The notes: generated by a model from the sequence alone, not told the origin. Counted from the first letter of the stretch, positions 14,401 to 32,913 are shown. The stretch: 64,000 nucleotides of DNA from Steroidobacterales bacterium (GCA_038226325.1 JBBRQO010000015.1:31278-95277); one strand, 5' to 3'. Numbers and translations are program-made.

Positions 14401-14430
14401 GGTAGGAACAGCATCTTGCCCTGTGTGTCC

Positions 14431-14792
14431 CCGGTATCCGTCTTGCGTTTCGGCAAGCAGGCCCTGGTGAAGTAGTGCGCGGATGAGATTGCGCCACTCC
14501 TGGAATGGTTCTTGCCGATGCCGTAGACGCCCAACTCGTCATGATTGAGCCAAAGTACACGCTGGGAGCGACTGCCGCGCAGTATGTCCATCAGTGTACT
14601 GCGCCGAATCGCTCGCGCCGCTGCGCCAGCCGTGCCACGCATTAGAGCAGCTGTTTGGCTTCGAGAGTACACACGTCCTGCTTTCGTGGCTTGCAGCAGT
14701 TGTCGCATGTGCCGCAGTGTGGCGCATAGTCTTCGTCAAAGTAACGCAGTTGGATGGCGCGACGTCATTCGGTTGACTCGGTGTAGCTCAAT
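14431..14792 (-). pseudogene. recQ fragment (relic copy of the Zn-finger/RQC-encoding part of recQ)
   Basis: Aligns base-for-base with 31421-31786 inside the intact recQ, roughly 85-90 percent identity by eye. There is a 4-nt gap (ctcctg/gaatgg versus ctcctgtgtggaatgg), other indels, and stops. The relic translates MDILRGSRSQRVLWLNHDELGVYGIGKNHS, versus RecQ MIDILRGSRSARVLSLNHDGLSVYGIGKNHS. Confidence 0.8.
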
Positions 14793-14815
14793 CGAGCGTG
14801 GCACCGCAAAGCCGG

Positions 14816-17074
14816 CTAAAAGTCCTTCCATTCCTCTTCCGCCGCCACGCCTCCGCCGCGAGTTGGGACGGAGACCACGGGAGCGGCAGGCAACTTTCTT
14901 TTGCCGCTCAAGGGCCGATTCGCGCCGCGGCGCTCGGTCGGTACATCGGCAATTACGGATATGCTCGGCCGCGTTGCCCTTCGTGGAGTCTCCGCATTCA
15001 CGACTTCTCTCACCCGAAAACGCGCGATTAGTCGCGACAAACTCGCCGCTTGCTCTGTGAGCGCCTGCGTGGCCGCCGAGGCTTGCTCCACCAGGGCGGC
15101 GTTCTGCTGGGTCACGTCATCCATCATCGTGATCGCGCGGTTGACTTGTTCGATGCCCGACGATTGTTCGCGGCTCGAGCTGGCTATCTCGGCCATGACG
15201 TCCGTCACTTTCGTCACTCCGGCGACGATCTGCGCCAGCACTTTTCCGGAATCGTCCACCAGTTTGCTGCCTTGTGTGACTTCGCGCACCGAGTCGTGAA
15301 TCAACACCTTGATTTCTTTGGCTGCTTGCGCACTGCGTGACGCCAGGTTCCTGACTTCCGAAGCGACCACTGCGAAGCCGCGTCCCTGTTCCCCGGCCCG
15401 GGCGGCCTCAACGGCCGCGTTGAGCGCCAGTAGATTGGTCTGAAATGCAATCTCGTCGATGACGCTGATGATGTTGGCGATGCGCTTCGAGGACGCGTTG
15501 ATTTCACTCATTGCCGCGACGGCTGCATTGACCACCACTCCGCCGCGCTCCGCCTGCTCTCGAGCCGCGGTGGCAAACTCGTTCGCCCGGGAGGCGTTGT
15601 CGGCATTGTTGCGTACGGTGGATGTCATCTCTTCCATCGAAGAAGCTGTCTGCTCCAGACTTGATGCCTGCTCTTCGGTGCGCTGACTCAGATCGGCGTT
15701 GCCTCGCGAAATCTCCTCCGCGCCACCGCGAACCTGGGCCGCCGCCCGCGTCATGCTGCGCACGACCTCTTCCATGCTCTCCAGCAAACGGTTCACGCCC
15801 CCGGCCAGGAATTTGAAGAATCCATCTTTGCCTTGCTCTGCGATTCGAACCGTCAAGTCGCCGTCGATGGCCTTGTCCACGATCGCCTGCACTTCCTCCT
15901 CCGTGGCCACTTCTTGGGTCCGGTCAAGCCACTGCACCACCGTCCCGACCCGCTGCCCCTCGTCTACTATCGGGTTGACTACGATTCGCAGCCTGGCATC
16001 ACCAATGGGCAAGTCTATCGCCCGGCCGGCAGCCAGGCCATCCAGCTGCAGACCCTGTAGAGAGGGCAGATTTTGAAACATCGCGAATGACCCGCCTATG
16101 AGCTGCTCTGGATCGAACAGCGCGACTTCCCTGCGGATCTCCAGCGCGTGACTATAAAACAATGTTCGGGCCGCATCGTTGACGTAGACAATTCTACCTT
16201 CCGCATCGCACAGCATCGCCCCTGCCGACACCTTGTCCAGGGCCATTCGAATGCGCGAATTCTCCGCCGCGGAGACAGTCTCCTTCTCCGTGCGTTCGCG
16301 CAGCGCTGATTGCATGCGCATCAGGCCTTCGAGTGTCCGCCCGATTTCATCTTTGGATGTCACCGTCACGTGGCTCGCATAGTTGCCCTTTTCTATTTCG
16401 CCCAGCACATCCGTCGCGGCGTTCAGGGGAATCCGGATGGCACGAGTCAACAAAAATGCCAGCAGGCATGCAGCCGCCACGGCAGAAAGCGAAAGGATGG
16501 TGAGCAGGCGCCGAGTATTTTGGTAGGATGCTTCGAGGTCGTTCGTACGCTCACGAATCTGCGCTTTTTTCTGATCGACCAATTTTTCCAAAGCATGCAT
16601 GACTGCGAGCTGTGCAGGTCGCGCCCGCTGCAGCAGGGTGGCCTTAGCCGCCTTGAGATCGCCGGCTTCCACTTGCCGCAGATATTCATCATCGAGGGGC
16701 GTCAAGTTGGCGCGCGCCTCCAACGCCACCTGTAACAGGGTCTTGGCTGCAGATGAATCGACGCTCGCTGTCAGCGTGTCGGCATATTCATTTCTTTTGT
16801 CAGCCAGGGCGCGCACCTGTTCGATCTCTTCCTGGATCTGCGCTTTATCTTCCATGATCAAGATATTGCTCGTGTGGCGCATGGACTCCGAAAGACTGGC
16901 GGCCCACGCATGGGCCATTTCAACCTTGTTGAACTCGGGACCGGTGAGTTCATTCACGGCGGCATTGAAGCCTGCCAAGCGGGTGAGGCTCAGGCCTACG
17001 GCAACGGCGAACACCGCGATCACGCCCGCGAAGGAGATGGCAAGCTTAGCGCCGACGGAATTCCGAAAACTCAT
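14816..17074 (-). CDS. methyl-accepting chemotaxis protein (two TM helices, periplasmic helical sensor, HAMP, PAS, signalling domain, C-terminal xWxxF pentapeptide)
   Basis: 752 aa. Highly conserved MCP hairpin tip ..[37 protein letters not shown]... Ends ..EEEWKDF, an xWxxF CheR/CheB tethering pentapeptide. Confidence 0.9.
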
Positions 17075-17138
17075 ATAGATCTCCAGGTACTCATTCTTCG
17101 ACGTCGCGCGCCACCACCTCCTGTGGTCGTCTGCCTAC

Positions 17139-17165
17139 TTATCGGATCTGCGGGCGGTTTCTTGA
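17139..17165 (-). promoter_or_regulatory. sigma-28 (FliA)-type promoter candidate for the MCP gene
   Basis: The reverse strand reads TCAA-GAAACCGCCCGCAGA-TCCGATAA. That is TCAA-N15-TCCGATAA against the consensus TAAA-N15-GCCGATAA, about 65 nt upstream of the MCP start. Confidence 0.45.
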
Positions 17166-17180
17166 GGCGCGGGACCGTGA

Positions 17181-17660
17181 CTACGCAGAGAGCAAGGTCA
17201 TTACGCCACCGCCATACTTCGGCAGCTGCAGCTGAAACTCTCGGCGGCCCCGTGGAGCCTGCAGCAGCGCCGCAGCCGGCCCCGGCAGCGAATGAGCAGC
17301 ATATAGTTGGTCCAGCCTCAAATGCGGCGACGCATCGTCCATCATGAGGCGGGTACAAATATTCATGATCTCGCGTACATTATCTTTCATGACATCCGTG
17401 AGTTGCCGCGTTTTTGCGGCATCCTTGACCACGGCCACGGGCAGCATGGAGAAGGCCGCGCCGAAGCTCACCGCGAGATTCGCATCTGCGCCGCACAAGG
17501 CGGCGGGATCGCCGTTATCGGACACAAAGACTCCGAACCAGGCGCCTCCGTTGAGCGTTTGATCGAATGGGCCCCCGGGCTTTACCACAAGCCCATCGAA
17601 AAGTGTTCCCAGAATCTGCAGTATTTTCTGGGTATCGGGGAGGGGACACGTCGTAGCCAT
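17181..17660 (-). CDS. CheX/CheC-like protein (putative CheY-P phosphatase)
   Basis: 159 aa, immediately downstream of cheY. Contains D-x3-E-x2-N (DNVREIMN), the CheC/CheX/FliY active-site motif. It is preceded by a ..AALCGADANLAVSFGAAFSML.. strand-helix pattern like CheX. The proline spacing after the motif is not canonical. Confidence 0.5.
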   Translation of the reverse strand: MATTCPLPDTQKILQILGTLFDGLVVKPGGPFDQTLNGGAWFGVFVSDNGDPAALCGADANLAVSFGAAFSMLPVAVVKDAAKTRQLTDVMKDNVREIMNICTRLMMDDASPHLRLDQLYAAHSLPGPAAALLQAPRGRREFQLQLPKYGGGVMTLLSA

Positions 17661-17689
17661 GGTATCTGCCTATCCAGAGCGCATACGAA

Positions 17690-18052
17690 TCAGTGTATGT
17701 GTTTGCTCAGCTGTGTTTTGAAAGTTTCCGGCGTGAACGGCTTCGAAATCAGAAATTGGGCGCCGGCGCCCAAAGCCTTCGCGATCATGTCCGGTGTCGC
17801 CTCGGTGGTGACGAAACCAAACGTAAGTTTGACTCCGCCGTTCACCAATGCCTCGAGTAATTGCAGCCCGGTCATATTGGGCATGTTCCAGTCGCACAGT
17901 ACGAGATCCGGCTTGCATGACTTGATGGCGGCCAACGCCTTGGCGCCATCGTCAGCTTCGGTGATATCGTGACCTTCGAATCCGGCAAGGCGCAGGGTCT
18001 TCTTGACGATCATCCGCATCGCGGCGGAATCATCGACGACCAGTATTTTCAT
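17690..18052 (-). CDS. cheY: chemotaxis response regulator CheY
   Basis: Internal ATG of ORF 17690..18112, preceded by GGAGGAGAG. MKILVVDDSAAMR...DLVLCDWNMPNMTG...FLISKPF carries the receiver acidic pocket, phospho-Asp and Lys. Confidence 0.9.
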   Translation of the reverse strand: MKILVVDDSAAMRMIVKKTLRLAGFEGHDITEADDGAKALAAIKSCKPDLVLCDWNMPNMTGLQLLEALVNGGVKLTFGFVTTEATPDMIAKALGAGAQFLISKPFTPETFKTQLSKHIH

Positions 18053-18121
18053 CTCTCCTCCTAGGGCCCTATGAGGTAGTCGGCGTGCGGCTGAAGTTCT
18101 TGAAATGAACAAGCAAAACCC

Positions 18122-19231
18122 TTAAGCCAGTGGAGGGTTGCGCTGCATCGCACCAGGCACTGCGCTCACGAGGCCCAGGATTTGCGCCGCGATGTGCTGC
18201 AGTGCATGCAGTGACTGCGCCGCTCCAATTTGCCAGGCGGCCCCCGGCATGCCCCAAACCACACTCGTATTTTCGTCCTGCGCAATAGTTGCAGCACCTG
18301 CCTCCTTCATTTCCTTCAAGCCTTCGGCGCCGTCGCGGCCCATGCCGGTGAGAATGACTCCGACGGAGTGACAGCCTGCGCTCTGGGCAACGGAGCGAAA
18401 CAGCACGTCAACGGACGGACGGTGGCGATTGACCAATGCTCCGTCGTTGAGGTGGCATCGATAACCGGCACCCTCTCGGAGCACCAGCAAGTGGCAATCG
18501 CCGGGAGCGATGTAGGCATGCCCCGCCAGAATGGGTTGCCCGTCCTGTGCTTCGCATACGATGAGCTCCGAGCAGGCGTTCATGCGGTTAGTAAACGCTG
18601 CGCTGAATGCCTTCGGAATATGCTGTGCAATGACAACGCCAGGTGTGTTCTGCGGTAAGTGCACGAGGATCTCCTTTATGGCTTCCGTGCCGCCGGTCGA
18701 GGCTCCTATGGCCACGATTCGACCCGAGGGCGCGGAATGCGTCACCGGCACGCGTTTTGGCAGCACTGCGTCAGCATTATGCAGCGGCTCTACGAGCGGC
18801 CAGGGATGGTCCCTGAGCGGTTGCACCCGAGCTTGGGCCGCCACCTTGACCTTGGCAATGATTTCCTGGGCGCAGTCCTTCATCCCTCGCGACACATTTA
18901 CTGTCGGTTTCGCCACGAAGTCGATGGCGCCAAGTGCGAGCGCGTCGAGCGCCGTCTCCGCACCCTGCTGCGTGAGCGATGAGCACATGACCACGGGCAT
19001 CGGCCGCAGACGCATGAGATTGCGCAAGAAGACAAGGCCGTCCATACGCGGCATCTCGACGTCGAGCGTGAGAACGTCGGGATTCAGAGCTTTGATCTTG
19101 TCTCGCGCTACATAGGGATCCGCCGCGGTTCCCACCACTTCGATTTGCGGGTCCGAACCGAGAATCTCGGACAGAATCTGCCGCATGACCGAGGAGTCAT
19201 CGACCACCAAAACGCGAATTTTCCTTTGCAT
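18122..19231 (-). CDS. cheB: protein-glutamate methylesterase/glutaminase CheB
   Basis: 369 aa with an N-terminal receiver (IRVLVVDDSSVMR..DVLTLDVEMPRMDG) and a C-terminal methylesterase domain (IVAIGASTGGTEA, GVILTGMGRDG). Confidence 0.9.
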   Translation of the reverse strand: MQRKIRVLVVDDSSVMRQILSEILGSDPQIEVVGTAADPYVARDKIKALNPDVLTLDVEMPRMDGLVFLRNLMRLRPMPVVMCSSLTQQGAETALDALALGAIDFVAKPTVNVSRGMKDCAQEIIAKVKVAAQARVQPLRDHPWPLVEPLHNADAVLPKRVPVTHSAPSGRIVAIGASTGGTEAIKEILVHLPQNTPGVVIAQHIPKAFSAAFTNRMNACSELIVCEAQDGQPILAGHAYIAPGDCHLLVLREGAGYRCHLNDGALVNRHRPSVDVLFRSVAQSAGCHSVGVILTGMGRDGAEGLKEMKEAGAATIAQDENTSVVWGMPGAAWQIGAAQSLHALQHIAAQILGLVSAVPGAMQRNPPLA

Positions 19232-19247
19232 TGTCTGCCGTTCCTGG

Positions 19248-19907
19248 TCAAGGCAATTGCATGACGTCGGCTGGCGGCGGCGCGCTGCCTGGCGTGTGTT
19301 GGCGTTCGTGTTCGAATACGGTGCGGTTGACGGTCGCGATCAGACGCTTGACGCGCAGCTTGCCGCTCGACGGGCTGTACAAAATCTTACGAGCGAAGCA
19401 GTCTCCGAGATCCTCCGCACTGATGACCAATCCCTCGCTCTTTAGGTAGTCACGCACGAATTGCGCGTTATGAGCGCCCACATCGAACGCCAGATCCAGT
19501 ATTTTGGCGCCCCCGACTACCTTGATTTCGAGATTCTCCCGCTGTCCACCCAACTCCAGAATGTCGCTGACCAATCGTTCCATGGCGACTTTACCGTAGC
19601 GGGTCGCGGAGCTGACTCGATCGGCGGTCCAGGCGCTCGCGCCGCCGGAGCGATCGAGCGGCAGCATGAAATGGTTCATGCCGCCGATCCCCAGCTTGCG
19701 TTCGCGCACACAGGCCGACACACAGGAGCCCAGGACCGTGAAAATCAATTCATCTTGCCGCGTGACGTAGTATTCACCTGGCAAAATTCTGGCAACCGAC
19801 ATGCTCAACTGAGGGTCCCAAGTCCGGCGTACATGCGCAAACTGAGGCAGCCCTTCCGGTATCTGCGGCGCGTCAGTCATTTTTCCCGACGCGCCGATCT
19901 GAGTCAC
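19248..19907 (-). CDS. cheD: chemoreceptor glutamine deamidase CheD
   Basis: 219 aa with ..ILPGEYYVTRQDELIFTVLGSCVSACVRE...GGMNHFMLP.., the CheD catalytic Cys/His blocks. Overlaps cheR by 4 nt. Confidence 0.9.
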   Translation of the reverse strand: MTQIGASGKMTDAPQIPEGLPQFAHVRRTWDPQLSMSVARILPGEYYVTRQDELIFTVLGSCVSACVRERKLGIGGMNHFMLPLDRSGGASAWTADRVSSATRYGKVAMERLVSDILELGGQRENLEIKVVGGAKILDLAFDVGAHNAQFVRDYLKSEGLVISAEDLGDCFARKILYSPSSGKLRVKRLIATVNRTVFEHERQHTPGSAPPPADVMQLP

Positions 19908-20743
19908 TCCACTCTCCGGTAGACGGTCCGGCCGACGAGCCGGTAGCGCTGGGTGACGTTGAATAGATTCTCCGAATGCCCAATGAACAGCCAGCCCCCC
20001 GGTTCTTGAATATCGGCCATGCGATCAAAGAGAGCACGTTGGGTGTCCCTGTCGAAGTAAATGACCACGTTACGGCAAAAAATCACGTCAAACGGGCCCT
20101 TCATCGGCCACGGCTCAAACAGGTTCAGTTGCCTAAACGTGATCAACGACTTGAGTTCATCGGCTGCCGCGCAGAAACCAGGCGTTCCGGCGACCGGGGG
20201 GAACCAGCGTCTCACCCTCGCCGCCGCGACGCTGCTGAGCCGGTCTGCGCCGTATATACCGGCGGCGGCGGTCGCCACCACCTTCGAGTCGATATCCGTG
20301 GCAAGAAGCTTGATATCCCAGCCAAGTAGGTGCGCCAGCGCCTCGCGCATGACCACCGCCATTGAGTACGCTTCTTCACCTGTGGAGCAACCCGCCGACC
20401 AAAGGCGCATGCGTCGCGTGCCGGATCGCTCCCGCTCCAACTGCGGCAAAACTTCCGTGGCGAGCTGTTCGAAGTGATATTTCTCCCGAAAAAAATATGT
20501 CAGATTGGTGGTGATTGCATTGATCAATTCCTGTGTTTCTTCCGCCGGCCTGTCTTCCACCAGCGCACAATACTCAGCGAACGATGTCAGCTTGAGCCTG
20601 CGCAGGCGCCGGGCAAGCCGTCCGTAGACGAGCTCACGCTTGCCATTGGACAAAGAAATTCCCGTATGTTCCCGCACCAGCGCGCGTAAACGGTCGAATT
20701 CGCGGTCGGTCAATTCGAATTCGTGGCTGGCGGGTGAAATCAT
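19904..20743 (-). CDS. cheR: chemotaxis protein methyltransferase CheR
   Basis: True start is M202 of the 480-aa ORF 19904..21346 (MISPASHEFELTDREFDRLRALVREHTGISL). It overlaps the upstream stop as ATGA. SAM-binding block RLWSAGCSTGEEAYS. Confidence 0.9.
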   Translation of the reverse strand: MISPASHEFELTDREFDRLRALVREHTGISLSNGKRELVYGRLARRLRRLKLTSFAEYCALVEDRPAEETQELINAITTNLTYFFREKYHFEQLATEVLPQLERERSGTRRMRLWSAGCSTGEEAYSMAVVMREALAHLLGWDIKLLATDIDSKVVATAAAGIYGADRLSSVAAARVRRWFPPVAGTPGFCAAADELKSLITFRQLNLFEPWPMKGPFDVIFCRNVVIYFDRDTQRALFDRMADIQEPGGWLFIGHSENLFNVTQRYRLVGRTVYRRVE

Positions 20744-21060
20744 TGCGCGAAGTCGGGATCCGGCAGGTGCAGCATCTCCGCCACACCGATTAGGACCGCC
20801 CTCTGGCGCAGAACGGCAGAGACGCCGCACCAAGTACAGGACACGCCACGCGCCGCACTCGTCCGCCACAGGCTCGTGAGCAACTGCAATATGGATGTAT
20901 CGATATCCTCCACATGGCTGCCGTCGATCGTCAGCGGGCGCCCGCTTGCGAGGCGCGTCGTCAGTGCACGGTGCAGGTCGGCGGCCTGCACGATGGTCAG
21001 TCGCGCGTCGAGCTCGACGCGCGATGACTGGGTCGCGCGCAGCGCTTTCCTTTTGGTCAT
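20740..21060 (-). CDS. STAS-domain protein (anti-sigma-antagonist fold; CheS-like position in the che operon)
   Basis: 106 aa. ..LTIDGSHVEDIDTSILQLLTSL..RGVSCTWCGVSAVLRQRAVLIGV.. fits the STAS pattern (lDls.v..iDssgl..L). Start and stop both overlap neighbours by 4 nt (cheW/STAS and STAS/cheR). Confidence 0.7.
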   Translation of the reverse strand: MTKRKALRATQSSRVELDARLTIVQAADLHRALTTRLASGRPLTIDGSHVEDIDTSILQLLTSLWRTSAARGVSCTWCGVSAVLRQRAVLIGVAEMLHLPDPDFAQ

Positions 21061-21605
21061 GCGGCCTCCGTGCCGGGCGACAGATCGTCTGCGAGGCTGT
21101 TGACGATGAGCCGATCAATGTCGAGCAGAATGAGCATCTTGTTTTCGACCGTCGCCAATCCCTTGACGAAGACAGTATCGACGCTGCCGCAGACATCGGG
21201 AGGCGGCTTGCAATCGGCCAAATTAACGTGATAAACATCAGAAACCGCATCGACAACCATGCCCACCGTACGTCCGTCATGCCCGCCGGCCACGCGCACG
21301 ACGATGACCACTGTCGTTGGACCGAATGCAATGGTCTCCAGGCCAAATCGTCGCCGCAGATCCAGAATGGGCACCACCGAACCTCGCAGGTTGATCACGC
21401 CCAGGACATAGTCCGGGGTACGGGGTATTCGCGTCACCTTGTCCCAGCCTTTGATTTCCTGCACGCGCAGAATGTCGACCCCATATTCCTCGCCATCGAG
21501 CATGAACGTCAGGTATTGCTCGCTGCTGCCCGCGGCGGACTTGTTGGCGCCGGCTGCCGGCGTCGCGTGTTTCGAGGTTGCGTTCGCCGTGGTTGCGTTG
21601 CTCAT
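21057..21605 (-). CDS. cheW: chemotaxis coupling protein CheW
   Basis: 182 aa with QYLTFMLDGEEYGVDILRVQEIKGWDKVTRIPRTPDYVLGVINLRGSVVPILDLRRRFG, a canonical CheW domain. Confidence 0.9.
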   Translation of the reverse strand: MSNATTANATSKHATPAAGANKSAAGSSEQYLTFMLDGEEYGVDILRVQEIKGWDKVTRIPRTPDYVLGVINLRGSVVPILDLRRRFGLETIAFGPTTVVIVVRVAGGHDGRTVGMVVDAVSDVYHVNLADCKPPPDVCGSVDTVFVKGLATVENKMLILLDIDRLIVNSLADDLSPGTEAA

Positions 21606-21673
21606 AATCTGAATTCCTCCGAAGCCTGCGGCCTTCCAACCTGCCTAATCCATGATGCCGACCGCGTCATACC

Positions 21674-23740
21674 TCAGGCTGCCTGCGCCGTCGCGGATCG
21701 GCGCAGTTGCTCGGCGCTTGAGTGGATCAGGTCCGGCACGTCAATGATGAGGGCTACCGTTCCATCGCCAAGAATCGTGGCGCCGGCAATGCCCGCAACG
21801 GACTTGAAATTCGCCTCCAGACTCTTGATGACGACTTGCTGCTGTGCAAGCAAATCGTCCACGAGAAGCCCGACGCGTTTACCATCCGCTTCGACAACAA
21901 CCAACAAGCCGTCTGCGGTGCGGTTGCTGTCCGGCTCGATGCCGAACTGATCACACAGTTTGACCACCGGCAAGTATTCCTCCCGCAACCGAAATACTTC
22001 AGCGTGCCCCACCCGCGTGTTCAAGTGTTCAGCACCGAGTTGGATGGTCTCCACGATCGATAGCAGCGATATGATGTAGGTTTCGTTGCCGATTCGGACC
22101 AGCTGTCCGTCGAGGATGGCAAGCGTCAGCGGCAGACGGATACGAATGGTGCTGCCGCGACCTTCGCTGCCAAATATCTGCACATGGCCGCCCAAGTCGA
22201 CTATGTTGCGGCGAACCACATCCATGCCGACGCCGCGACCGGAAACGTCGCTGATCTTATCGGCCGTGGAGAAACCCGGCATGAATATCAGATTGTGGAT
22301 CTGTTCCTCCGTCAGCTCTTGATCCACGGATATGAGACCGCGTTCGCGCGCCTTCTGCAGAATCTTCTCTTTGTTGAGGCCGGCGCCGTCGTCGCGCACT
22401 TCGATGATGATGTTGCCGCCCTCATGAAACGCAGCCAATTGCAGGGTGCCGCACTCCTGCTTGCCCGCCGCGAGACGCTTTTCAGGCGTTTCCAAACCGT
22501 GATCGAGAGCGTTACGAACCAGGTGCACGAGCGGATCGCTGATCTTCTCGAGGACGGTCTTATCCAGTTCGGTGCCTTCCCCGATCAGCTTGATTTCAAC
22601 TTTTTTTCCCAGCTTGCGGGACAGGTCATGCACGATGCGCGGAAAGCGGTTGAACGCAAAGCTAATCGGCAGCATACGTATCTGCATCACGCTTTCCTGC
22701 AGCTCGCGCGTGTTGCGCGCCAGCTGCGAGAGCGCCTGGCGCAGCCGATCCGGTTCATTGGGACCGCTTGCCTCGGCGAAGCCGCAAAGCATCGATTGGG
22801 TAATGAGCAGCTCGCCCACCAAATTGATGATGTTATCGAGTTTATCGGTGGCGACCCGAATTGAGCCCGACTCGGCATTCGCCTTGGGCGCGGCAGTCGC
22901 CGGCGCCGCGGCCCGCTCCGTACTCTGCGAAGCTGCGCTAAGTGAGGCTATTTTGTCAGCTTCGGGCGGCGACAAGTTTGGAGGGACGATGCCGGGATTG
23001 CCGGTGGCCGTGAACTCAAGCCGGCAACGGGGATCCACCCAGTCGAAAATGTCGTCGAGAGCGGCCCGCGGAATCTGCCCGGCGATTTCGAGATCCCAGG
23101 AAAGATAGCAGGACTGCGGGTCAAGCGCCTCGAGCGCGGGAAGTCGAGTAACGTCGGCGCGCGCGACCAGTGTTCCCAAACGCTCAAGTTCGCCGAACAT
23201 GCGGGTCGGCTCGTTGCGCAGACGCAGTAAGTCGCTGACCGGCTCGAAAGAGATTCGCCAGCCCTGCGTCTGCGCGGAGTTCATGGAGTTGGTCGGTGCG
23301 GCCACTTCCAATGCCGGCTTGGGCGCAACCGGCTCGCCGAGGATTTGCCGGATGTCCGCGTCCAGTCTCGCGATGCGGGCCCGATCCAACGGCTGTTCGG
23401 TTTCCGTCGCCATCATCATTTCGCGCATGCAGTCGCAGGACTGCAGCAGGGTCTGAATCGCCTCGGCGGTGATCGGCCGCGAGCGATTGCGCATTCCATC
23501 CAGCAGTGTCTCAACGCCGTGCGTAAAGGCGGCTACTTCCGCGAACCCAAAAGTCGCGGCGCCGCCCTTGATGGAATGAGCGGCACGGAAAATCGTGTTG
23601 ATACTCTCGTCGTCGGCTGACGCATCCAGAGTCAGGAGACCCGATTCCATCGCGTCCAAAGCCTCCCGGCACTCTTGGAAGAAGACTTTGAGGATTTCCA
23701 ACATTTCTCGATCAAGGCTCATGCTCGATTCCTTCGGCAC
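21674..23740 (-). CDS. cheA: chemotaxis histidine kinase CheA
   Basis: 688 aa, GTG start. Hpt block AHSIKGGAATFGF, dimerisation and HATPase blocks (HLVRNALDHG, DDGAGL, GRGVGMDVV), C-terminal CheW-like P5 domain. No receiver domain. Confidence 0.9.
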   Translation of the reverse strand: MPKESSMSLDREMLEILKVFFQECREALDAMESGLLTLDASADDESINTIFRAAHSIKGGAATFGFAEVAAFTHGVETLLDGMRNRSRPITAEAIQTLLQSCDCMREMMMATETEQPLDRARIARLDADIRQILGEPVAPKPALEVAAPTNSMNSAQTQGWRISFEPVSDLLRLRNEPTRMFGELERLGTLVARADVTRLPALEALDPQSCYLSWDLEIAGQIPRAALDDIFDWVDPRCRLEFTATGNPGIVPPNLSPPEADKIASLSAASQSTERAAAPATAAPKANAESGSIRVATDKLDNIINLVGELLITQSMLCGFAEASGPNEPDRLRQALSQLARNTRELQESVMQIRMLPISFAFNRFPRIVHDLSRKLGKKVEIKLIGEGTELDKTVLEKISDPLVHLVRNALDHGLETPEKRLAAGKQECGTLQLAAFHEGGNIIIEVRDDGAGLNKEKILQKARERGLISVDQELTEEQIHNLIFMPGFSTADKISDVSGRGVGMDVVRRNIVDLGGHVQIFGSEGRGSTIRIRLPLTLAILDGQLVRIGNETYIISLLSIVETIQLGAEHLNTRVGHAEVFRLREEYLPVVKLCDQFGIEPDSNRTADGLLVVVEADGKRVGLLVDDLLAQQQVVIKSLEANFKSVAGIAGATILGDGTVALIIDVPDLIHSSAEQLRRSATAQAA

Positions 23741-25157: not shown

Positions 25158-25204
25158 GGGAGCTCCGAAAGGCAGTTCGCGCGTACGTCATGCACGCATG
25201 CTGG

Positions 25205-25231
25205 GTATCGGCGCGAATGACTCGAGATTTA
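25205..25231 (-). promoter_or_regulatory. sigma-28 (FliA)-type promoter candidate for the small secreted protein / HDOD unit
   Basis: The reverse strand reads TAAA-TCTCGAGTCATTCGC-GCCGATAC, i.e. TAAA-N15-GCCGATAC (7 of 8 in the -10 element, perfect -35 core), about 50 nt upstream of the start at 25157. Confidence 0.5.
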
Positions 25232-25354
25232 GCCCCTGGGCACGCGGAAACGATTTTTGTGACATGCGTCACACAGGCGGCGCGCCCCGCCTGGGGGCGA
25301 ATATCCGATCGTGCGCGGATCGCGTTTTCCGTCGTCTCGCCGTGGGCGCCCTCG

Positions 25355-25381
25355 TAAAGTTTGCGGCCGCTCGGTCGACAT
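25355..25381 (+). promoter_or_regulatory. sigma-28 (FliA)-type promoter candidate for the second MCP
   Basis: TAAAGTTT-GCGGCCGCTCG-GTCGACAT, i.e. TAAA-N15-GTCGACAT. Nearly superimposable on the cheA promoter candidate (AAGTTT.CG.G.GCTCGGTCGA.A). Confidence 0.4.
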
Positions 25382-25470
25382 ATTGCGGGAGACGATTGCG
25401 CCGCCACGGAAGCGAGCATGAGGCGCGCCGTTGCTGGTCGGACCCCGCATGCCTTGGAGTGGCTATCACA

Positions 25471-28083
25471 ATGAATATCGCCGCACGGATGAAAATGGCC
25501 CAAAAACTCGCGATGATCGTGATCGTGCTTTTGTTGCCCCTGAGCTATGTCAGCGTCGAGTACGCAGCCGGCCTATCCGTGCAGATCAAGGAACATGAGT
25601 CTGCAGACAACGGGCTGCACTACTTCGAAGGCCTCAAGGAAGCCGGACGCGCCCTCGCCGCTCATGCCTCATTCACAGCGACGTTATTGGCCGGTGAAGC
25701 TAATACCTCCTACTTCGACAAAAAGATACAGGAGGCCGCTGCCAGATTGGACACCAGCATCGCCTTGCAAGATAGGTCCGAGGAAAAGTACGGCCAGGAA
25801 GGCTCTCCGGAGCGCCTGCTGTGGCAGGAAGTCAAGGCCGATTGGGCCAGCTTGGCGAAGAACTGGCCGAAGCTCACTCCCGAAGCCTCGGCGCAACGCC
25901 ACGACTCGTTATCCGCAAAGCTGACCAAACTGGTTCGTCTCATCGGGGAAACTCATCATCTGGATCGCGACGGTGACCTGCAGCAATATTATCTGCAGGA
26001 GCTGTCCGTACTAGAAATACCGCGTCTGTCCTTTGAATTCGGTGCACTGCGGGCAGCCGCGGCGCCCGTCGCAGCGCAAATGCTCTCAGTCACGCAGGAG
26101 CAAGAAGCCAAGATCAATGCGATTTCCGCGAACATTCGCTTCTTGATGGACAGTGCCCATTGGAAGCTTGATTCGCTGAGCGAATGGGCGACCCGAACCC
26201 GAGATGGCGACTTCGGCGCTCAAATGAAACAAGCCAACGATGCGTTGCATGCGAGCGAAGACGCGCTTATTGGATATCAGCGCTGGGTCGCCTCGAACAT
26301 CTTGACGCGTCGACCGGTCGGTGTGGCCTCACAGGAAGTCATGGAACAAGGCGCCTCTTTCGAGACCAAGCTGACGGCGCTACACGAGCTTCTGATGGAG
26401 CAGGTGAGCACTCGTTCCGCAAAGCGGCTCGCGGGCGAGCGATCCGAGCGCAATCTAGCGCTGACATTCGTAGCCGCCATGGTAATTGCTGCCATACTTC
26501 TGGCTGGTTACTTCACCCGCGGCTTGACACGCTCGATGCGGTGCGCGGTCTCGATTTTTGCGGCGATCGAGGCGGGTCACTACGAAAATGAAATCAAAGT
26601 GAACAGTGCCGACGAGGCCGGGCAAGTGCTTCGCTCACTGGATAAAATGCAAAACACCCTGAGGGTGCGCATCGAAGCGGACCGGCGGTTACTCGCGGAA
26701 AATACGCGCGTTCGTCAGGCGCTCGACAACGCCGGCACGATTGTATTGGTGGTGGACGAGAAACATAAAATCGTCTATGCCAACGAGACCGCCAAAACGA
26801 CCTTCGCACTGCTGCGGCGCGACATCCAACGCGACTTGCCGCAATTCTCCGATACGGCATTGGTCGGCGCCTCCATCGATATATTCAAACCCGTGCAATT
26901 TTTGGACAGAGGGGCGCTCGACCGATTGCGCGATTCTCAGAGCGAGATGCTTACTCTGGGCGGCCATTCCCTCGTGTTGAATGCCAGCCCCATCGTAGAC
27001 GCCACCGGCGCCCGCCTCGGCACGGTGCTGGAATGGCGAGATCGAACCAACGGCGTCGCAGTCGAGAACGAAGTGAAGTTCGTCGTCGCAGAAGCCTTAC
27101 GCGGCAATCTGCAGGCACGCCTGCCGGTCGAGGGTAAGAGCGGCTTTCATGCCAATCTCGCGGGTGGGCTGAATGAGCTGCTCGACAATCTTTCCACGGT
27201 AGTGAGTACCATCAAGGACGCGGTAGTCGCCGTTCGTTCCAGCGCCGATGATATATCAAAGGGCAACGCGGAATTATCGGGGCGCACAGAGGCCCAGTCT
27301 TCGGCTCTACAGGAGACCGGCGCCGCGCTCGAAGAATTGACCGCTACCGTTCGGCAGTCCGCGGTGAACGCGGCCCATGCCGACGAACTCGCGAGCTCCG
27401 CGCGCAATCGTGCCGAAAACGGCGGCGTGGTGGTTTCTTCGGCGATTACCGCCATGCATCAAATCAACGCCTCCAGTCACAAGATCGCTGACATCATCGG
27501 GGTCATTGACGAGATTGCTTTTCAGACCAATCTGCTGGCATTGAACGCGGCCGTGGAAGCGGCTCGCGCTGGCGAGCAAGGTCGCGGCTTTGCCGTCGTG
27601 GCCGCAGAGGTCCGCAGCCTTGCGGGCCGTTCCGCTCAGGCTGCCAAGGAGATCAAGACATTGATCAACGACAGCGTAGACAAAGTCAGCGAGGGCGCAA
27701 AGCTTGTCGATCAGTCCGGCGAAATGCTTCAGGAAATCGTCCTTGCGGCGCAAAGCGTCAACAAAATCGTGGCGGAAATCGCGGCTGCTACCCGCGAGCA
27801 AAGTGCCGGAATCGGCGAGATCAACAGCGCCATCGCAAAAATCGACGAGATGACCGGCAAGAATGCGGTTCTGGTCGATCACGACGCCGCAGTGGCGACC
27901 GCCCTTCTGACGCAGACCAATGCGCTGACCGAAGCCATGGATAAGTACCAGATTGGCGATACTGGTGCCGTCGCGTTTAGCAGCCGATCCGTTTCTACAG
28001 GGCCAAAGGCGGAATCTAGCAAAACCGAGCCGGTCATCCGCTCGCTCTCGGGGTCGCGTCGGCACACAGGGAGCCAGCGTTGA
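25471..28083 (+). CDS. methyl-accepting chemotaxis protein (large ~300-aa periplasmic sensor, HAMP, PAS, signalling domain; no pentapeptide)
   Basis: In-frame ATG ([24 protein letters not shown]) within ORF 24886..28083. The longer ORF would overlap the divergent gene and promoter region. Same conserved tip [37 protein letters not shown]. Ends ..RRHTGSQR. Confidence 0.9.
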
Positions 28084-28196
28084 GGTATATCCACACGATT
28101 TGCGCGTTTCTGCCGAAGCTTTATTGTGCTAGAGGGTCTTGGCGCGCGTGCATAACGCGCTGCGACTGAAAATCAACCCGCTCGGGGCATTATATT

Positions 28197-28559
28197 GTGT
28201 CGATCATTCCGGTTGCACCTACCTATAAGTCGGGACAACGATCTGTGGCGCCTACGAATTCCGAGGTCTCGAATGTCGCCCGGGCGGCAGCGCTCCCGTT
28301 CCTAGGCAAACTTGCCGCGGAGTCCCCGTGGCATCCATCAGTCAGGTTGTGGCGCGCCGCACGCAGATCAGCCCCGATGAAGCCTTCCTGACAGGATTGC
28401 TGCACGGTATTGGCCGCCTGTACATCATGGTTCGAGGGGATTCGCCGATGAAATGTCCGCAGCCGTCAGCGACCAGGCCGAGGCTGAGCGACATCGAAAA
28501 CGCAAGCGCGAGGTCTTGAAGATACCTACCCGCGCGTGCACGATGCATTGGGGTGCTGA
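28197..28559 (+). pseudogene. internally deleted relic copy of the HDOD gene at 29905..30825
   Basis: Retains four blocks in different frames. (1) VAPTYKS...ARAAALPFLGKLAAE versus TAPTYGK...ARGAALEFLRRLAAE. (2) ASISQVVARRTQISPDEAFLTGLLHGIGRLYIMVR versus ASISQVVARRTKVNPDEAFLSGLLHGIGRLYIMVR. (3) FADEMSAAVSDQ versus FAPEICEAVAEQ. (4) A terminal VHDALGC* versus LHNALGC*. Confidence 0.7.
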
Positions 28560-28583
28560 TTCGCCTGCCGACGACATCGCACG

Positions 28584-29132
28584 CTAGAAGAGTTCCACCT
28601 CACCCGCGCCGTTGGCGCTTGCCGGCCGTTTAGACACAGCCGTGCCCCTGTCGGTCGAAGACGCATCGCCGGCCAGGGTATCGAACAGAGCGCGTTCTTG
28701 CTCCATGCTGTGAATTTCGCGGATCCGCTGCCGCAGCTCGTTCCACTGCACGTCCGACTTCGGCGTGCTGTCGGCCGCCATGAACTGCGCAAGCTGGGTC
28801 AGGCTGGAACAGACATGAGTGAGGCATTGCACTAAGCGGTCGTGAAACTGGATGGCGGTAGCTGCCTTGCTCGATCGAATATGCATGTCATCGTGCAGGA
28901 GCATGAGATCCTGAAATACCCTCGCCGGCGAACCCGAGAAATCGAACAGGCAACGCGCAATTGTCTGGGTCGCAGTGCTCATCGAGTGTGCCGCCTCGAC
29001 AAGAGTCGCTGCGGGGGCGTCGGTCTCGTGCAGCGCGGACTCGATTTGCGCCGAGATGATGCCCAGCATCGACACGAGGTTTTCGGTCTGCTGAAGGGGC
29101 AAAGAGCTTGCTTCACTCGCTAATTTGTTCAT
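28584..29132 (-). CDS. hypothetical protein, candidate divergent CheZ-like CheY-P phosphatase
   Basis: 182 aa, 33 nt downstream of a single-domain CheY. KAATAIQFHDRLVQCLTHV lines up with E. coli CheZ KIMMAQDFQDLTGQVIKRM (catalytic D143 and Q147 in a D-x3-Q spacing). Predicted helical. Acidic/hydrophobic C-terminus ..GEVELF, like the CheY-binding CheZ tail ..DSLGF. Confidence 0.55.
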   Translation of the reverse strand: MNKLASEASSLPLQQTENLVSMLGIISAQIESALHETDAPAATLVEAAHSMSTATQTIARCLFDFSGSPARVFQDLMLLHDDMHIRSSKAATAIQFHDRLVQCLTHVCSSLTQLAQFMAADSTPKSDVQWNELRQRIREIHSMEQERALFDTLAGDASSTDRGTAVSKRPASANGAGEVELF

Positions 29133-29165
29133 ATCAGTTAATTCCCGATGCCAACGCGGCTTGGA

Positions 29166-29528
29166 TTACAAGACCCGATTGATCGTCGCTATCAGCTGTT
29201 GAGTATTGAACGGCTTCACCAGCCAGCCGGTCGCCCCGGCCTCCTTTCCCTGCAGCTTTTTGTCCTTAGCCGACTCGGTGGTAAGCACCAGCATTGGAAC
29301 GCATTTATAGGCCGGCAGTAAACGCAATTCGCGGATCAAGGTGAGGCCATCCATGCGCGGCATATTGATGTCGGTCAGTACAAGGTCCGCGCTATGGCCG
29401 CGGGCAAATTCCAATGCTTCGACGCCGTCGCTCGTCTGCTTGACTTCGTAGCCTTCGCCCGTGAGCGTCAATTGCATCATAAGACGAATCGACGGGGAAT
29501 CATCGACAGTGAGTATCAGTCTGGCCAT
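29166..29528 (-). CDS. single-domain CheY-like response regulator (second CheY)
   Basis: 120 aa: ILTVDDSPSIRLMM...DLVLTDINMPRMDGLTLIREL...PMLVLTTES...GATGWLVKPF. Confidence 0.9.
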   Translation of the reverse strand: MARLILTVDDSPSIRLMMQLTLTGEGYEVKQTSDGVEALEFARGHSADLVLTDINMPRMDGLTLIRELRLLPAYKCVPMLVLTTESAKDKKLQGKEAGATGWLVKPFNTQQLIATINRVL

Positions 29529-29777
29529 CTTCGCATCTCCGTCTCGAACGCCCTCGTCTCCGGCAACCGGTCATTGAGAGTAACCTTCTCAGGCCTCATC
29601 TCAATGTTGCACATTTCCAGTTTCAAGCGTTGGGTTTGCTTCACATAGTCAGCACATGGAAATCCCGTCAAATTGCTGCCCATCCATGCGCCTTGCACGC
29701 CAAAGATGCACGCGTGAGATATGTGACGAGTATCACCAAAATCGCCAGCGAGACCTGCGAAGCACAGGCATTAGGGC

Positions 29778-29804
29778 TAAAGCTTAACCACAACTCGCCG
29801 TCAC
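29778..29804 (+). promoter_or_regulatory. weak sigma-28-like promoter candidate for the second HDOD gene
   Basis: CTAAAGCTT-AACCACAACTC-GCCGTCAC, i.e. TAAA-N15-GCCGTCAC. Only 5 of 8 in the -10 element, but correct spacing and a good -35. About 100 nt upstream of the ATG at 29905. Confidence 0.25.
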
Positions 29805-29904
29805 CTCTAGATAACCTATGAAGCGCTAACCTCGATTTGGCCTCAACACATTACAAGCATGCCTGTTTGAGAGTCGCCACAATTGTCTTCGGAGAGACCT
29901 GAGT

Positions 29905-30825
29905 ATGGCAAACGCCTTTACGGCCCCTACCTACGGCAAGGCGCCTGCTGCCTGCGCCGATAGCGTGGCAACGGCCGCGGCGCGGGGTGCGGCGCTTGAG
30001 TTCTTACGCCGGCTAGCAGCGGAGCTATCCGCGGGCACGGTCGATTTGCCGTGTTTTCCGAAAGTAGTGATTCAAATTCGCAAGGCTTTGGCCGACCCCG
30101 CCACCACTCCGGAACAAACCGTCACCATGGTCGGCGCGGAACCGCGCTTAGCCGCCCGCCTGCTTCAAACCGCCAATTCCACTGCGTTCAATCTGTCAGG
30201 TAAGCCGCTGGCGGATCTGCGTTCTGCAATCACGCGATTGGGCTATCGGATGGTGCAGAGCGCAGCCATGGCTTTTGCCATCCAACAAATGAAGGACGAA
30301 CATTCGCTACGCAGTATCGCGACGCCCATGAACGCCTTGTGGCAGGAATGCATCGCCGTTGCCTCAATCAGCCAGGTCGTCGCCCGACGAACCAAGGTAA
30401 ATCCAGACGAGGCCTTCTTGAGCGGTCTATTGCACGGCATCGGACGCCTGTACATCATGGTCCGAGCGGTGCTCCAATCACCCCCCATAGGCAGCGAGGA
30501 ATCTTTTCGGGATTTGGTTTCCGGTTGGCATGCGTCGATCGGCAAGGCGGTTCTGGAAAACTGGAGCTTTGCGCCGGAGATATGTGAGGCAGTGGCGGAG
30601 CAAGGCAATCACGACCGGCAACACAAAGGGGACGCGGATCTATCGGATGTCTTAATTGCGAGTAAGTTGCTGGCAGAAGCATTGAACACCGCCTCGCCGC
30701 AAATCGTCGACTATGACGCCGTCAGCTCGCTCCAACGCATCGGACTCAATGCGGACAACTGCACCCCGATCCTAAAAATCGCCCGGCATCAAATAGCCTC
30801 ACTCCACAACGCACTAGGCTGTTGA
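29905..30825 (+). CDS. HDOD-domain protein
   Basis: 306 aa. LPCFPKVVIQIRKALADPATTPEQTVTMVGAEPRLAARLLQTANSTAFN...AITRLG, GLLHGIGRLYIM, ..WHASIGKAVLENWSFAPEICEAVAEQ are HDOD blocks. Confidence 0.85.
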   Translation: MANAFTAPTYGKAPAACADSVATAAARGAALEFLRRLAAELSAGTVDLPCFPKVVIQIRKALADPATTPEQTVTMVGAEPRLAARLLQTANSTAFNLSGKPLADLRSAITRLGYRMVQSAAMAFAIQQMKDEHSLRSIATPMNALWQECIAVASISQVVARRTKVNPDEAFLSGLLHGIGRLYIMVRAVLQSPPIGSEESFRDLVSGWHASIGKAVLENWSFAPEICEAVAEQGNHDRQHKGDADLSDVLIASKLLAEALNTASPQIVDYDAVSSLQRIGLNADNCTPILKIARHQIASLHNALGC

Positions 30826-31065
30826 AATCAAACCAGTTGCGGCGGATCCGACGAAAGGTTCTGGCCTAATAGCGGACTGGCCCCCAAGGATTCATGATGC
30901 CCACGAGGCGAATCTGCATTACGCGCAAGAACCAAAACCATTTAAGGGTTTGCTACAACGGCCTTACCGCCCTTTGCCGCCACATTCAACGTTGCTAAAC
31001 ATATGGGAATAGTAATAGATGCTCGAAACAAACGAGGCCGCCGGCATAACTTCGTCACGAGAATG

Positions 31066-32913
31066 CTAGCGTGCATGTCTAATCGCCTCGATGAAACGCT
31101 CTCCGTAACGGGAGAGCTTGGCCTCGCCGATGCCGCGGATGCGCGAAAACTCGTGCAGCGTCGCGGGGCGTTGTTGGGCCATCTCGCGCAGAGTCGCATC
31201 GTGGAAAATCACGTACGGTGGAAGCCCATGCTCGTCGGCCAACTGTTTGCGCAGCGTACGCAACAATTCAAATAGTGTCCTGTCCCCGCCGCCGAGTGGC
31301 GCGCCCGTCGACGAGGCGCTTGCCTGCCGTGTCGATGGAGAGGACTGCGCCGCGCGAGCTATCTGCACGGTTTGTTCTTCCTTGAGCACCCGCCAGCTTT
31401 CTGCGTTGAGTACCAGCACCGGGTATCCGTCTTGCGTTTCCGCAAGCAGGCCCTGGTGCAGTAGTGCACGGATGAGATTGCGCCACTCCTGTGTGGAATG
31501 GTTCTTACCGATGCCGTAGACGCTTAACCCGTCATGATTGAGCGAAAGTACACGCGCGGAGCGACTGCCGCGCAGTATATCGATCATGTGTGCTGCGCCG
31601 AACCGTTCGTGCCGCTGCGCCAGCCGTGCCACGCATGACAGCAGCTGTTTGGCTTCGACAGTACGGTCCTCCAACGTTCGTGGCTGGCAGCAGTTGTCGC
31701 ATGTGCCGCAGGGTGGCGCATAGTCTTCGTCAAAGTAACGCAGCTGGATGGCGCGACGGCACTCGGTTGACTCGGCGTAGCTCAAGATCTTTCGCAGCTG
31801 CTGGCGGGCGACACGTTGCTCGGCTTCAAGCGGCTCGCCGCTGTCCGGGTCGACTTTCTGCTGGATGAGAAATTCCGCAGTGCGGATGTCGGCCGGCCCA
31901 TAAAACAACGTGCAGCGCGCCGGATCTCCATCGCGGCCGGCCCGGCCCGCTTCCTGGTAATAACCCTCAATCGACCGCGGCAGATCGTAGTGCACCACCC
32001 ACCGTACGTCGGGTTTGTTGATGCCCATGCCGAATGCGACGGTGGCAACGATGACCTGCACATCGTCGCGGATAAAAGCGTCCTGATTCGCACGGCGTGC
32101 CTCAGCATCCAAACCGGCGTGATACGGCCGCGCGGTAACCCCGTCGGACGTTAGCCGTTCGCAGATTTCCTCAACGCGCTTGCGCGACAGGCAATAAACA
32201 ATGCCGGCACCGCCGGTTCTAACAAGCCGCAACAGCTCTGCATAGGTGGCAGCGTCTTTCAGACGCACATCGTAGAAAAGATTGGGCCGGTTAAAGCTCG
32301 AGAGGTGCACTGCCTCGTCGCGTAACGCCAGCTGCGCGATGATGTCCGAACGTACCCGAGAGGTAGCTGTGGCGGTAAAAGCCAGTATAGGAACGCGCGG
32401 ATGGCGTCGACGCAGCGTCGCCAGCTGGCGATACTCGGGCCTAAAGTCATGTCCCCATTCTGATACGCAATGCGCCTCATCGATGACGAAGGCGTTGATC
32501 CCGGGCTTTGCCGCGAGCCGCTCCAGCGGGCCGGAGAGAAAATCGGTCATGAGCAGTCGTTCTGGCGCCAAATACACCAGCTTGAACGCTCCATGGAGCA
32601 TGGCCGCAATCCGCTGCTGAATCGCTTCGCGGGGCAACGAGGAGTTGATGAAGGTTGCTGCAATACCATTGTCTTCGAGTAGCCGCACCTGGTCCTGCAT
32701 GAGCGCGATCAACGGTGACACCACCAAGCTGACCCCCGGCTGCAGCAGCGCGGGCAGCTGAAAACACAGAGATTTTCCGCCGCCGGTGGGCATCAGGGCA
32801 ATGACGTCCCGTCCGGCGAGGGCATCCCTGACGACGGCCTCCTGGCCGGGCCGGAAAGCAGTAAATCCGAAGATGCGATGCAGTGAATTGGCTAAATCAA
32901 CCATGCTCGGCAT
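31066..32913 (-). CDS. recQ: ATP-dependent DNA helicase RecQ
   Basis: Start taken at MPSMVDLANSLHRIFGF (ORF track extends to 33003). Motifs PTGGGKSLCFQLPAL, DEAHCVSEWGHDFRPEY, Zn-binding C..CGTCDNCC, and a C-terminal HRDC block (LFELLRTLRKQLADEHGLPPYVIFHDATLREMA). Confidence 0.9.
   Translation of the reverse strand: MPSMVDLANSLHRIFGFTAFRPGQEAVVRDALAGRDVIALMPTGGGKSLCFQLPALLQPGVSLVVSPLIALMQDQVRLLEDNGIAATFINSSLPREAIQQRIAAMLHGAFKLVYLAPERLLMTDFLSGPLERLAAKPGINAFVIDEAHCVSEWGHDFRPEYRQLATLRRRHPRVPILAFTATATSRVRSDIIAQLALRDEAVHLSSFNRPNLFYDVRLKDAATYAELLRLVRTGGAGIVYCLSRKRVEEICERLTSDGVTARPYHAGLDAEARRANQDAFIRDDVQVIVATVAFGMGINKPDVRWVVHYDLPRSIEGYYQEAGRAGRDGDPARCTLFYGPADIRTAEFLIQQKVDPDSGEPLEAEQRVARQQLRKILSYAESTECRRAIQLRYFDEDYAPPCGTCDNCCQPRTLEDRTVEAKQLLSCVARLAQRHERFGAAHMIDILRGSRSARVLSLNHDGLSVYGIGKNHSTQEWRNLIRALLHQGLLAETQDGYPVLVLNAESWRVLKEEQTVQIARAAQSSPSTRQASASSTGAPLGGGDRTLFELLRTLRKQLADEHGLPPYVIFHDATLREMAQQRPATLHEFSRIRGIGEAKLSRYGERFIEAIRHAR

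Follow-up and report, generated by a model that had tools for sequence, protein, structure and literature searches.

In homology-facilitated illegitimate recombination (HFIR), as PMC5361080 summarizes the work of de Vries and Wackernagel (2002), Prudhomme et al. (2002), and Meier and Wackernagel (2003), a homologous anchor is combined with a joint that has no homology or only a few bases of it; nonhomologous DNA is trapped beside a conserved gene and orphaned remnants are left, and such gene remnants in Vibrio type VI secretion system and Rhs arrays have been ascribed to related processes (PMC5361080). When the fragment is linear, textbook HFIR removes recipient DNA or replaces it rather than duplicating it. 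In Escherichia coli crosses aimed at HFIR, 56 of 60 recombinants were single crossovers (SCO) of circles, that is, Campbell-type integrations, with target duplications of 109-950 bp (PMC3240628). Here, we describe a locus from the genome of a Steroidobacterales bacterium (GCA_038226325.1, JBBRQO010000015.1:31278-95277; this stretch of 64,000 nt is the window in what follows) in which a 16-kb chemosensory (che) gene cluster lies between an intact recQ gene and, 16.6 kb from it, a decayed, 362-nt piece of recQ, the relic. We favor the reading that the relic is the scar of a duplicative insertion of the che cluster through recQ homology.

The likeness to Campbell-type integration is close in structure: direct repeats of a segment running from within the target gene to its 3′ part enclose the insert, with a complete copy on one side and a truncated one on the other; the process does not call for a recombinase gene; and the repeat that we reconstruct, 732 bp, would fall inside the experimental range. 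The differences are that this would be a natural event in uncultured Steroidobacteraceae, that it involves an operon cluster of 16 kb rather than a plasmid, that the circle is one we infer from its product, and that 429 nt and about 8% of the bases have since been lost from the left repeat. With HFIR the locus shares the homologous anchor and nonhomologous joint, the trapped DNA beside a conserved gene and the orphaned remnant, and its joints have at most 2 nt of microhomology, but the target segment is duplicated here rather than deleted or replaced. Islands that tyrosine recombinases insert at gene 3′ ends likewise show direct repeats of the target gene (their att repeats) around a mobile module, with an empty, here che-less, site in a relative; this locus, in contrast, lacks an integrase, a tRNA or tmRNA target, and a short att core, its repeat consists of hundreds of bases of internal coding sequence, and a second species carries the module with no such repeat. 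Finally, Johnston et al. in 2013 reportedly described transformation-induced merodiploidy in Streptococcus pneumoniae, where tandem duplications bridged by incoming DNA are said to be large, unstable, and derived from self DNA. That process resembles the present case in that a duplication arises when a DNA fragment pairs alternatively with two copies of the chromosome and differs from it in that only a short arm is duplicated here, stabilized by deletion.

Results

A sequence-only reading of the window had proposed that the che locus is bracketed by direct recQ repeats, with 14431-14792 matching 31421-31786 at roughly 85-90% identity. Alignment bears this out with slightly adjusted borders: MAFFT, blastn of the window against itself, and local alignment concur on a direct repeat of 14430-14791 and 31419-31785, both on the minus strand, with 89.6% identity over 367 columns and 33 mismatches (E = 1.4e-139 to 1.6e-137). 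Both gaps in the alignment (1 nt and 4 nt) are deletions in the relic, which in addition carries two in-frame stops (recQ nt 1245 and 1367) and two frameshifts, much as that reading had described it (a 4-nt deletion, further indels, and stops). The repeated part corresponds to recQ nt 1219-1585 (aa 407-529), encoding the last part of the Zn-binding domain and the bulk of the RQC domain as delimited by Pfam, and this is all that the relic keeps of the 1938 nt of recQ. A search of the whole 4.9-Mb assembly found only these two copies of the repeat, and the longest perfect match surviving between the arms is 31 nt. It was likewise correct that the relic fills almost the entire gap between the stop codons of the neighboring antiporter and methyl-accepting chemotaxis protein (MCP) genes: apart from the relic (14433-14791), that gap holds only a 32-nt spacer remnant (14401-14432) and the 24 nt starting at 14792, which lie 3′ of the MCP stop. 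No Rfam families, promoters, or terminators were found in or around the relic, and the 362-nt element is a functionless recQ pseudogene fragment that bears no sign of function.

Two details of the relic deserve mention. On the minus strand at 14397-14708, the gene callers applied to Logan contigs of the window's organism give an 81-aa open reading frame (ORF) with an RQC Pfam match, which appears in the ORF list as a 103-aa version if begun at an ATG farther upstream. This ORF merely follows a single frame through the frameshifted relic and is not a gene. Within 22 nt at 14671-14692 (recQ nt 1318-1339), moreover, seven relic-specific substitutions change QPRTLEDR to KPRKQDVC. At one of these, nt 1328 (Thr to Lys), the relic has the ancestral state found in other species, and the remaining ones look like either a mutation cluster or the variability of a linker between the Zn-binding and winged-helix domains.

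The site without the che locus is preserved in L023, a 3341-nt Logan contig from an uncultured close relative that is 97-98% identical to the window. Its first part (1-2304) matches window 12130-14432 at 97.1% and covers the 5′ end of a helicase gene, the antiporter gene, and 32 nt past the antiporter stop; its remainder from 2369 to 3341 matches window 31054-32026 at 97.9% and covers the 3′ half of recQ together with 12 nt beyond its stop codon. A second contig of the relative (3949 nt, run X3) spans 32002-33600, from recQ into the amidohydrolase gene, with 25 differences. In this relative, the antiporter gene and a single, uninterrupted, full-length recQ converge over a 108-nt spacer, and between them L023 has neither relic nor che locus, so the proposed synteny check, whether the antiporter adjoins recQ where the che locus is absent, came out as anticipated. 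Runs X3 and X4 (which hold the close relative and come from a different study than X1 and X2, two runs of a single study that hold the window's own organism) gave no long contig over 14790-31070 at 85% likeness or more, whereas X2 covers this interval fully.

Three differences separate the window from L023 here: a 16,262-nt insert at 14792-31053, an extra recQ copy that ends at nt 1219 and abuts the left end of the insert, and the absence of 429 nt between the spacer remnant and the relic. The missing stretch equals spacer nt 33-108 (76 nt) plus recQ nt 1586-1938 (353 nt) of L023, and it is this deletion, having trimmed the left arm, that gives substance to the suggestion that one copy decayed by deletion. 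The insert joint (recQ nt 1219 to 14792) reads GCTCAA/TCGAGC, without useful homology, and the deletion joint (...GTCCCC/GGTATCC) has at most 2 nt (CC) of microhomology. Pairwise divergence between the window and L023 is 5.8% at antiporter third positions, 3.3% in intergenic sequence, and 3.1% at recQ third positions, and the duplicated part of the intact recQ is no more diverged from L023 than the gene is elsewhere.

Other relatives are farther away. Apart from L023, no recQ haplotype above 88% amino acid identity turned up in runs X6-X9, the metagenome contigs of JGI, or 5.8 billion proteins, among which the nearest RecQ proteins are 87-88% identical; no genome with an untrimmed left arm was found in the metagenome contigs or these proteins either. 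The first 40 GTDB relatives and seven recQ neighborhoods were uninformative for synteny because, in this very large genus, the majority of members are too remote (recQ about 68% identical in nucleotides, antiporter at most 49% in amino acids). In the closest species (G056, G052, G101, G055, G102, G066, and G105; recQ 81-86%), neither che genes nor the antiporter gene lies 3′ of recQ, and the gene order is recQ-(amidohydrolase)-radical SAM/RluE-antiporter-peptidase. An apparent second copy of the recQ 3′ region in G052 (712 nt) was discounted, as it lies at a contig end in a metagenome-assembled genome (MAG) with 7% contamination.

Where the relic comes from was addressed with a maximum-likelihood tree of the 367-nt segment and nine relatives. 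The relic groups with the recQ genes of the window and L023 (ultrafast bootstrap, UFBoot, 100), and the other species, at most 86% identical, fall outside. Its branch carries 6 synonymous and 15 nonsynonymous changes (pS 0.068, pN 0.054-0.065), for an omega of 0.8-0.96 that is compatible with neutrality; an omega of 0.1 is rejected (p = 5e-6), and the functional path over the same interval has a pS of 0.068 and a pN of only 0.011. The relic's changes also lean from GC to AT, 13 versus 6. By the tree and these substitution patterns, the relic has been nonfunctional for essentially its whole history apart from the functional lineage and is native to this lineage rather than a piece of a foreign, long-diverged recQ. 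The sequence-only reading had preferred the replacement of a resident recQ by an incoming one and had asked for separate phylogenies of the two copies. These place both in one clade with L023 recQ (UFBoot 100), and that grouping together with the neutral relic branch leads us to reject a foreign-donor origin of either copy; the duplicated part of the intact recQ shows no excess divergence from L023. Its view that the duplication is not recent agrees with the relic's neutral divergence of about 6.8%.

The insert itself is tightly bounded. In line with the statement that everything between the recQ copies is chemotaxis-related, the genes there are chemosensory or small ORFs: two MCPs (MCP and MCP2), CheA, CheW, STAS, CheR, CheD, CheB, two CheY (CheY and CheY2), and HDOD proteins (among them HDOD2) by Pfam, along with three small ORFs. 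The parts of the module include a CheX-like ORF, a 103-aa ORF, a 182-aa ORF, and an HDOD relic. Variants of MCP, CheB, and CheY2 were found by cluster look-up on a 73.7-kb contig of G055 (MAG GCA_025358295.1), another species. The che module there (sequences L033 and L034) is 89.7-91.0% identical in nucleotides to window 14803-30832 and sits at an unrelated site, with hut/amidohydrolase genes on one side and redoxin-HDAC-rpsL-rpsG-fusA on the other. No flanking repeat and no recQ-derived border accompany the G055 copy. The genes that flank it are 75-84% identical between the two genomes and recQ with its radical-SAM/RluE neighbors 85-86%, so that 90-91% for the module stands against 75-86% for the hut, HDAC, str operon, recQ, and radical-SAM genes. 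CheA is 94% identical in amino acids to that of G055, while the next best match among 185,579 species genomes reaches 76%. The module is absent from G056, G052, G101, G102, and G105, species as close as G055. Because its likeness exceeds that of housekeeping genes, its location differs, and its presence is patchy, these comparisons show that the che locus is a discrete, gene-tight module that has moved horizontally, as the sequence-only reading had suspected.

The means of movement left no obvious trace in the module. No integrase or transposase Pfam family occurs among the called genes of the window or G055, no tRNA was found at the module, and it has no terminal repeats (no end repeats longer than 8 nt). 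The comparison of composition that had been suggested shows nothing atypical: GC is 59.0% versus 60.8% (11th percentile), GC3 is like that of the flanks, and the tetranucleotide distance is at the 86th percentile. Such native composition fits exchange inside the genus. It had been allowed that a lack of significant similarity would refute the proposal, as would relatives carrying a che locus with no recQ sequence at its border together with native composition of the locus, the repeat being in that case an unrelated local event. The similarity is significant (E 1e-137), and the second picture is found in part, in that the G055 module has no recQ border and composition is native; the repeat is thus the scar of one insertion, the present one, rather than a border that the module generally has.

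The site that the module occupies in G055 is present and che-less in the window genome, on contig C31. Where G055 has che and redoxin genes, C31:7455-8501 holds an ORF of 348 aa with a lysine/arginine/alanine-rich N-terminus (MATVKAKSKAGRPRK...), and because this ORF replaces them, the site is variable in both lineages.

Discussion

We propose, at a probability of about 0.55, that the relic was left by a duplicative insertion via recQ homology, with a circular intermediate entering by a single crossover or by some related route. The starting arrangement would have been that of the 98%-identical relative: antiporter gene, 108-nt spacer, recQ. Entry would have taken one homologous exchange in the 3′ third of recQ and one illegitimate joint, between recQ nt 1219 and a point 24 nt beyond the MCP stop; since a linear double crossover replaces its target and cannot duplicate it, the duplication calls for a single-crossover or illegitimate step. 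The likeliest route would be a Campbell-type single crossover of circularized DNA that carried the module and a 3′ fragment of recQ. About 732 bp, a length taken from the relative and made up of 12 nt of 3′ flank and recQ nt 1219-1938, would then have been duplicated as direct repeats around the module. The right copy would have been continuous with the remaining recQ and stayed functional, and the left copy, lacking the 5′ two thirds of the gene, would have been dead from the outset. Later, the 429-nt deletion would have taken spacer nt 33-108 and recQ nt 1586-1938, and neutral mutation would have eroded the left copy to the present relic. Because the left arm lacks the recQ 3′ end and recombination between the present arms would yield a truncated, frameshifted recQ, the module has no clean exit by this route and is now fixed.

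Several observations weigh against this history. Neither a circular intermediate nor a donor arrangement, with che beside recQ, has been observed, and no sampled relative has che downstream of recQ. In the tree, the relic branches outside the pair formed by the recQ genes of the window and L023 (UFBoot 92). The grouping reflects five sites (nt 1242, 1328, 1365, 1479, and 1497) at which the relic has the outgroup state and the two intact genes share a derived one, and alternative topologies are not rejected by the approximately unbiased test (p = 0.09). The relic's neutral divergence of about 6.8% is also two to three times the per-lineage divergence between the window and L023, so that the split of the relic looks older than that between the two recQ genes, in which case L023 is probably no simple pre-insertion ancestor. 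Instead, L023 is probably either the product of a later excision, which would have gone by recombination between the once-intact 732-bp arms, or one of two haplotypes that coexisted and exchanged flanking DNA. A further difficulty is the distribution of changes in recQ nt 1586-1938, where the window has five derived states among six differences and L023 has none; elsewhere in the region compared, derived changes are split about evenly (5 versus 6). This asymmetry fits none of the models considered here and may be noise. Lastly, the order across the repeat is supported by the 109-kb MAG contig alone and by plausibility, and the Logan (De Bruijn) contigs of the same organism in X1 and X2 break at a 29-31-nt word that the arms share (14719-14749 = 31713-31743).

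The same final structure and the same two joints would also follow from a tandem duplication and a large deletion in one genome in which che already lay between the antiporter and recQ. An illegitimate exchange between sister chromosomes would have doubled the unit bounded by 14792 and recQ nt 1219; about 16.7 kb would then have been deleted, with loss of the first che copy and the 3′ end of the first recQ but not of nt 1219-1585; and L023 would be an independent che deletion. Such a course explains a never-functional relic of the same lineage with no donor, and it lets the relic predate the divergence of the window and L023. It requires, however, three independent illegitimate events. Tandem repeats usually collapse quickly by ordinary homologous recombination, and the nonhomologous deletion would have had to come before a 17-kb repeat did so. 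In L023 the spacer joins recQ 12 nt past its stop, a position that suits the end of a duplicated unit but would here have to be a coincidental deletion endpoint, and no genome with two che copies has been seen (the assembly and runs X1 and X2 have a single one), although a second copy may formerly have existed. We consider this course of events unlikely.

A somewhat fainter prospect is that the polarity was the reverse, as in classical HFIR. The recipient would already have had che, the 221-nt spacer, and recQ, and a linear, L023-like fragment with the helicase gene, antiporter, spacer, and recQ nt 1938-1219 would have come in, pairing homologously on the left and attaching its recQ end illegitimately at a point 24 nt beyond the MCP stop; the trailing end of that fragment would now be the relic. 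No circle is needed for this, and one homologous plus one illegitimate joint is the pattern of HFIR (PMC3240628, PMC5361080). The antiporter gene is itself a relocated single-gene block compared with relatives of 87% identity, and divergence from L023 climbs toward the junction (13 differences in the last 200 nt versus about 2.5% elsewhere), a rise that could also be explained by a weakly constrained antiporter C-terminus. Given 732 bp of perfect recQ homology, though, a clean double crossover that deleted che would be expected; the relic lies outside the pair of intact recQ genes rather than with that of L023; and no strain with che and recQ in the absence of the antiporter was found.

We think it quite improbable that the relic is templated filler, laid down when a break at the antiporter-che junction was repaired by a template-switch copy of about 730 nt of recQ, 16 kb away, with L023 arising by homologous recombination between the filler copy and recQ. 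One event would then have made both novel joints, and the mere 12 nt of recQ 3′ flank in L023 and a relic that predates the window-L023 divergence would be explained. We know of no documented outcome of bacterial break repair with templated patches of such length, and the recQ 3′ end of L023 would descend from the decaying copy, yet its nt 1586-1938 lack derived changes. Least probable by far is an assembly artefact, either a mis-join at the shared 29-31-nt word or a relic from a second strain in the metagenome: the graph does break exactly at 14720-14748 = 31714-31742, within that word, and two traversals are possible, but single Logan contigs carry the relic with unique sequence on either side, structure and depth are the same in two independent runs, relic-specific substitutions are equally dense on the two sides of the word (4 in 43 nt and about 25 in 290 nt), and the other traversal would leave a genome with only a frameshifted recQ.

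The features on which the duplicative insertion through recQ is reconstructed are collected in Table 1. For the unique 221-nt spacer, no homologue was found in the genome or in any fetched locus. Its identification as the native recQ 3′ flank, based on a match in G056, was dropped as not significant (score 15, with shuffled sequences reaching 17).

Table 1. Window coordinates of the recQ relic, the che insert, and the genes around them.
Feature	Position	Strand	Description
Na+/H+ antiporter gene	12853..14400	+	Complete, left flank; Pfam PF00999, E 3e-46; 97% nt identity to L023
Remnant of antiporter-recQ spacer	14401..14432		First 32 nt of the 108-nt spacer; 26/32 identical to L023 2273-2304
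recQ relic	14430..14791	-	Equals recQ nt 1585..1219; 2 stops, 2 frameshifts
Insert relative to L023	14792..31053		16,262 nt; chemosensory module plus 24 nt on the left and 221 nt on the right
che module proper	14803..30832		Common to G055; 89.7-91.0% nt identity to L033/L034
Unique spacer	30833..31053		221 nt; from HDOD2 stop to recQ 3′ flank
Downstream of recQ stop	31054..31065		12 nt; common to the che-less relative, homology resuming at 31054 = L023 2369; would be the right end of the duplicated unit
Intact recQ	31066..33003	-	Pfam DEAD, Helicase_C, RecQ_Zn_bind, RQC, HRDC; 97.9% nt identity to L023; 31066-31418 (HRDC-coding end) is the part deleted from the relic copy
Amidohydrolase gene	33048..34577	+	Right flank; PF07969; common to the che-less relative

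Some further observations concern the neighbors of the relic. The recQ ORF encodes 645 aa from its first ATG; close homologues have 612-625 aa and span only about 95% of it, and the true start probably lies 20-30 codons downstream. The antiporter block (12817-14402) is a relocated single gene relative to relatives of about 87% identity (L024-L032), in which the antiporter has the radical-SAM/RluE pair (window 34554-37121) on one side and a peptidase M28 gene (window 1-999) on the other and adjoins neither the DEAD helicase gene nor recQ; homology in these relatives ends 36 nt before the start and 2 nt after the stop. In other species of the genus, the closest homologues of HDOD2 (58-66% in amino acids) usually lie 1-8 kb from recQ (for example, at G117:C1:1683954-1687673, G123:C4:286345-289635, and G008:C6:7024-13488), upstream of it and on the same strand where orientation was determined (G008, G117, and G123), and in G066 an HDOD gene (39% in amino acids) is convergent with recQ as in the window. 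This proximity may be coincidence or an old linkage.

The che locus also holds a second pair of a relic and an intact gene, in direct orientation: an HDOD relic at 28197-28559 and HDOD2 at 29905-30825, which flank a cassette of cheY2 and the 182-aa ORF. The HDOD relic is decayed and internally deleted and matches HDOD2 at aa 7-40 (50%), 147-188 (77%), and 300-306. It predates the split of the two che copies, since G055 has it too, as a 164-aa HDOD ORF.

A broader idea, which we offer as a long shot, is that Steroidobacteraceae shuffle operon-sized cassettes between sites and species with no dedicated mobility gene. Circles would be excised illegitimately and re-enter by single crossover via a captured fragment of a neighboring gene, and once one repeat had been trimmed the cassette would be "locked," since its excision would now destroy a gene essential for fitness, here recQ. 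Recurrent shuffling is hinted at by the pair of HDOD relic and HDOD2, the gene-tight che borders in two species, and the relocation of the antiporter gene. More speculatively still, read-through from the antiporter gene would yield relic RNA antisense to the recQ mRNA.

Conclusions

The relic is a known kind of recombination scar, left by an ordinary event, and no new kind of system is involved. For annotation, the lesson is that 14397-14708 should not be called a gene. The locus offers a natural example, with its che-less site known, of a 16-kb chemosensory cluster moving with no integrase, transposase, or tRNA target, within and between uncultured Steroidobacteraceae of soil and sediment. 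The scar dates the insertion, which at about 6.8% neutral divergence would be older than the split from the 98%-identical relative, and it suggests that an insertion once reversible through 732-bp repeats has since become fixed.

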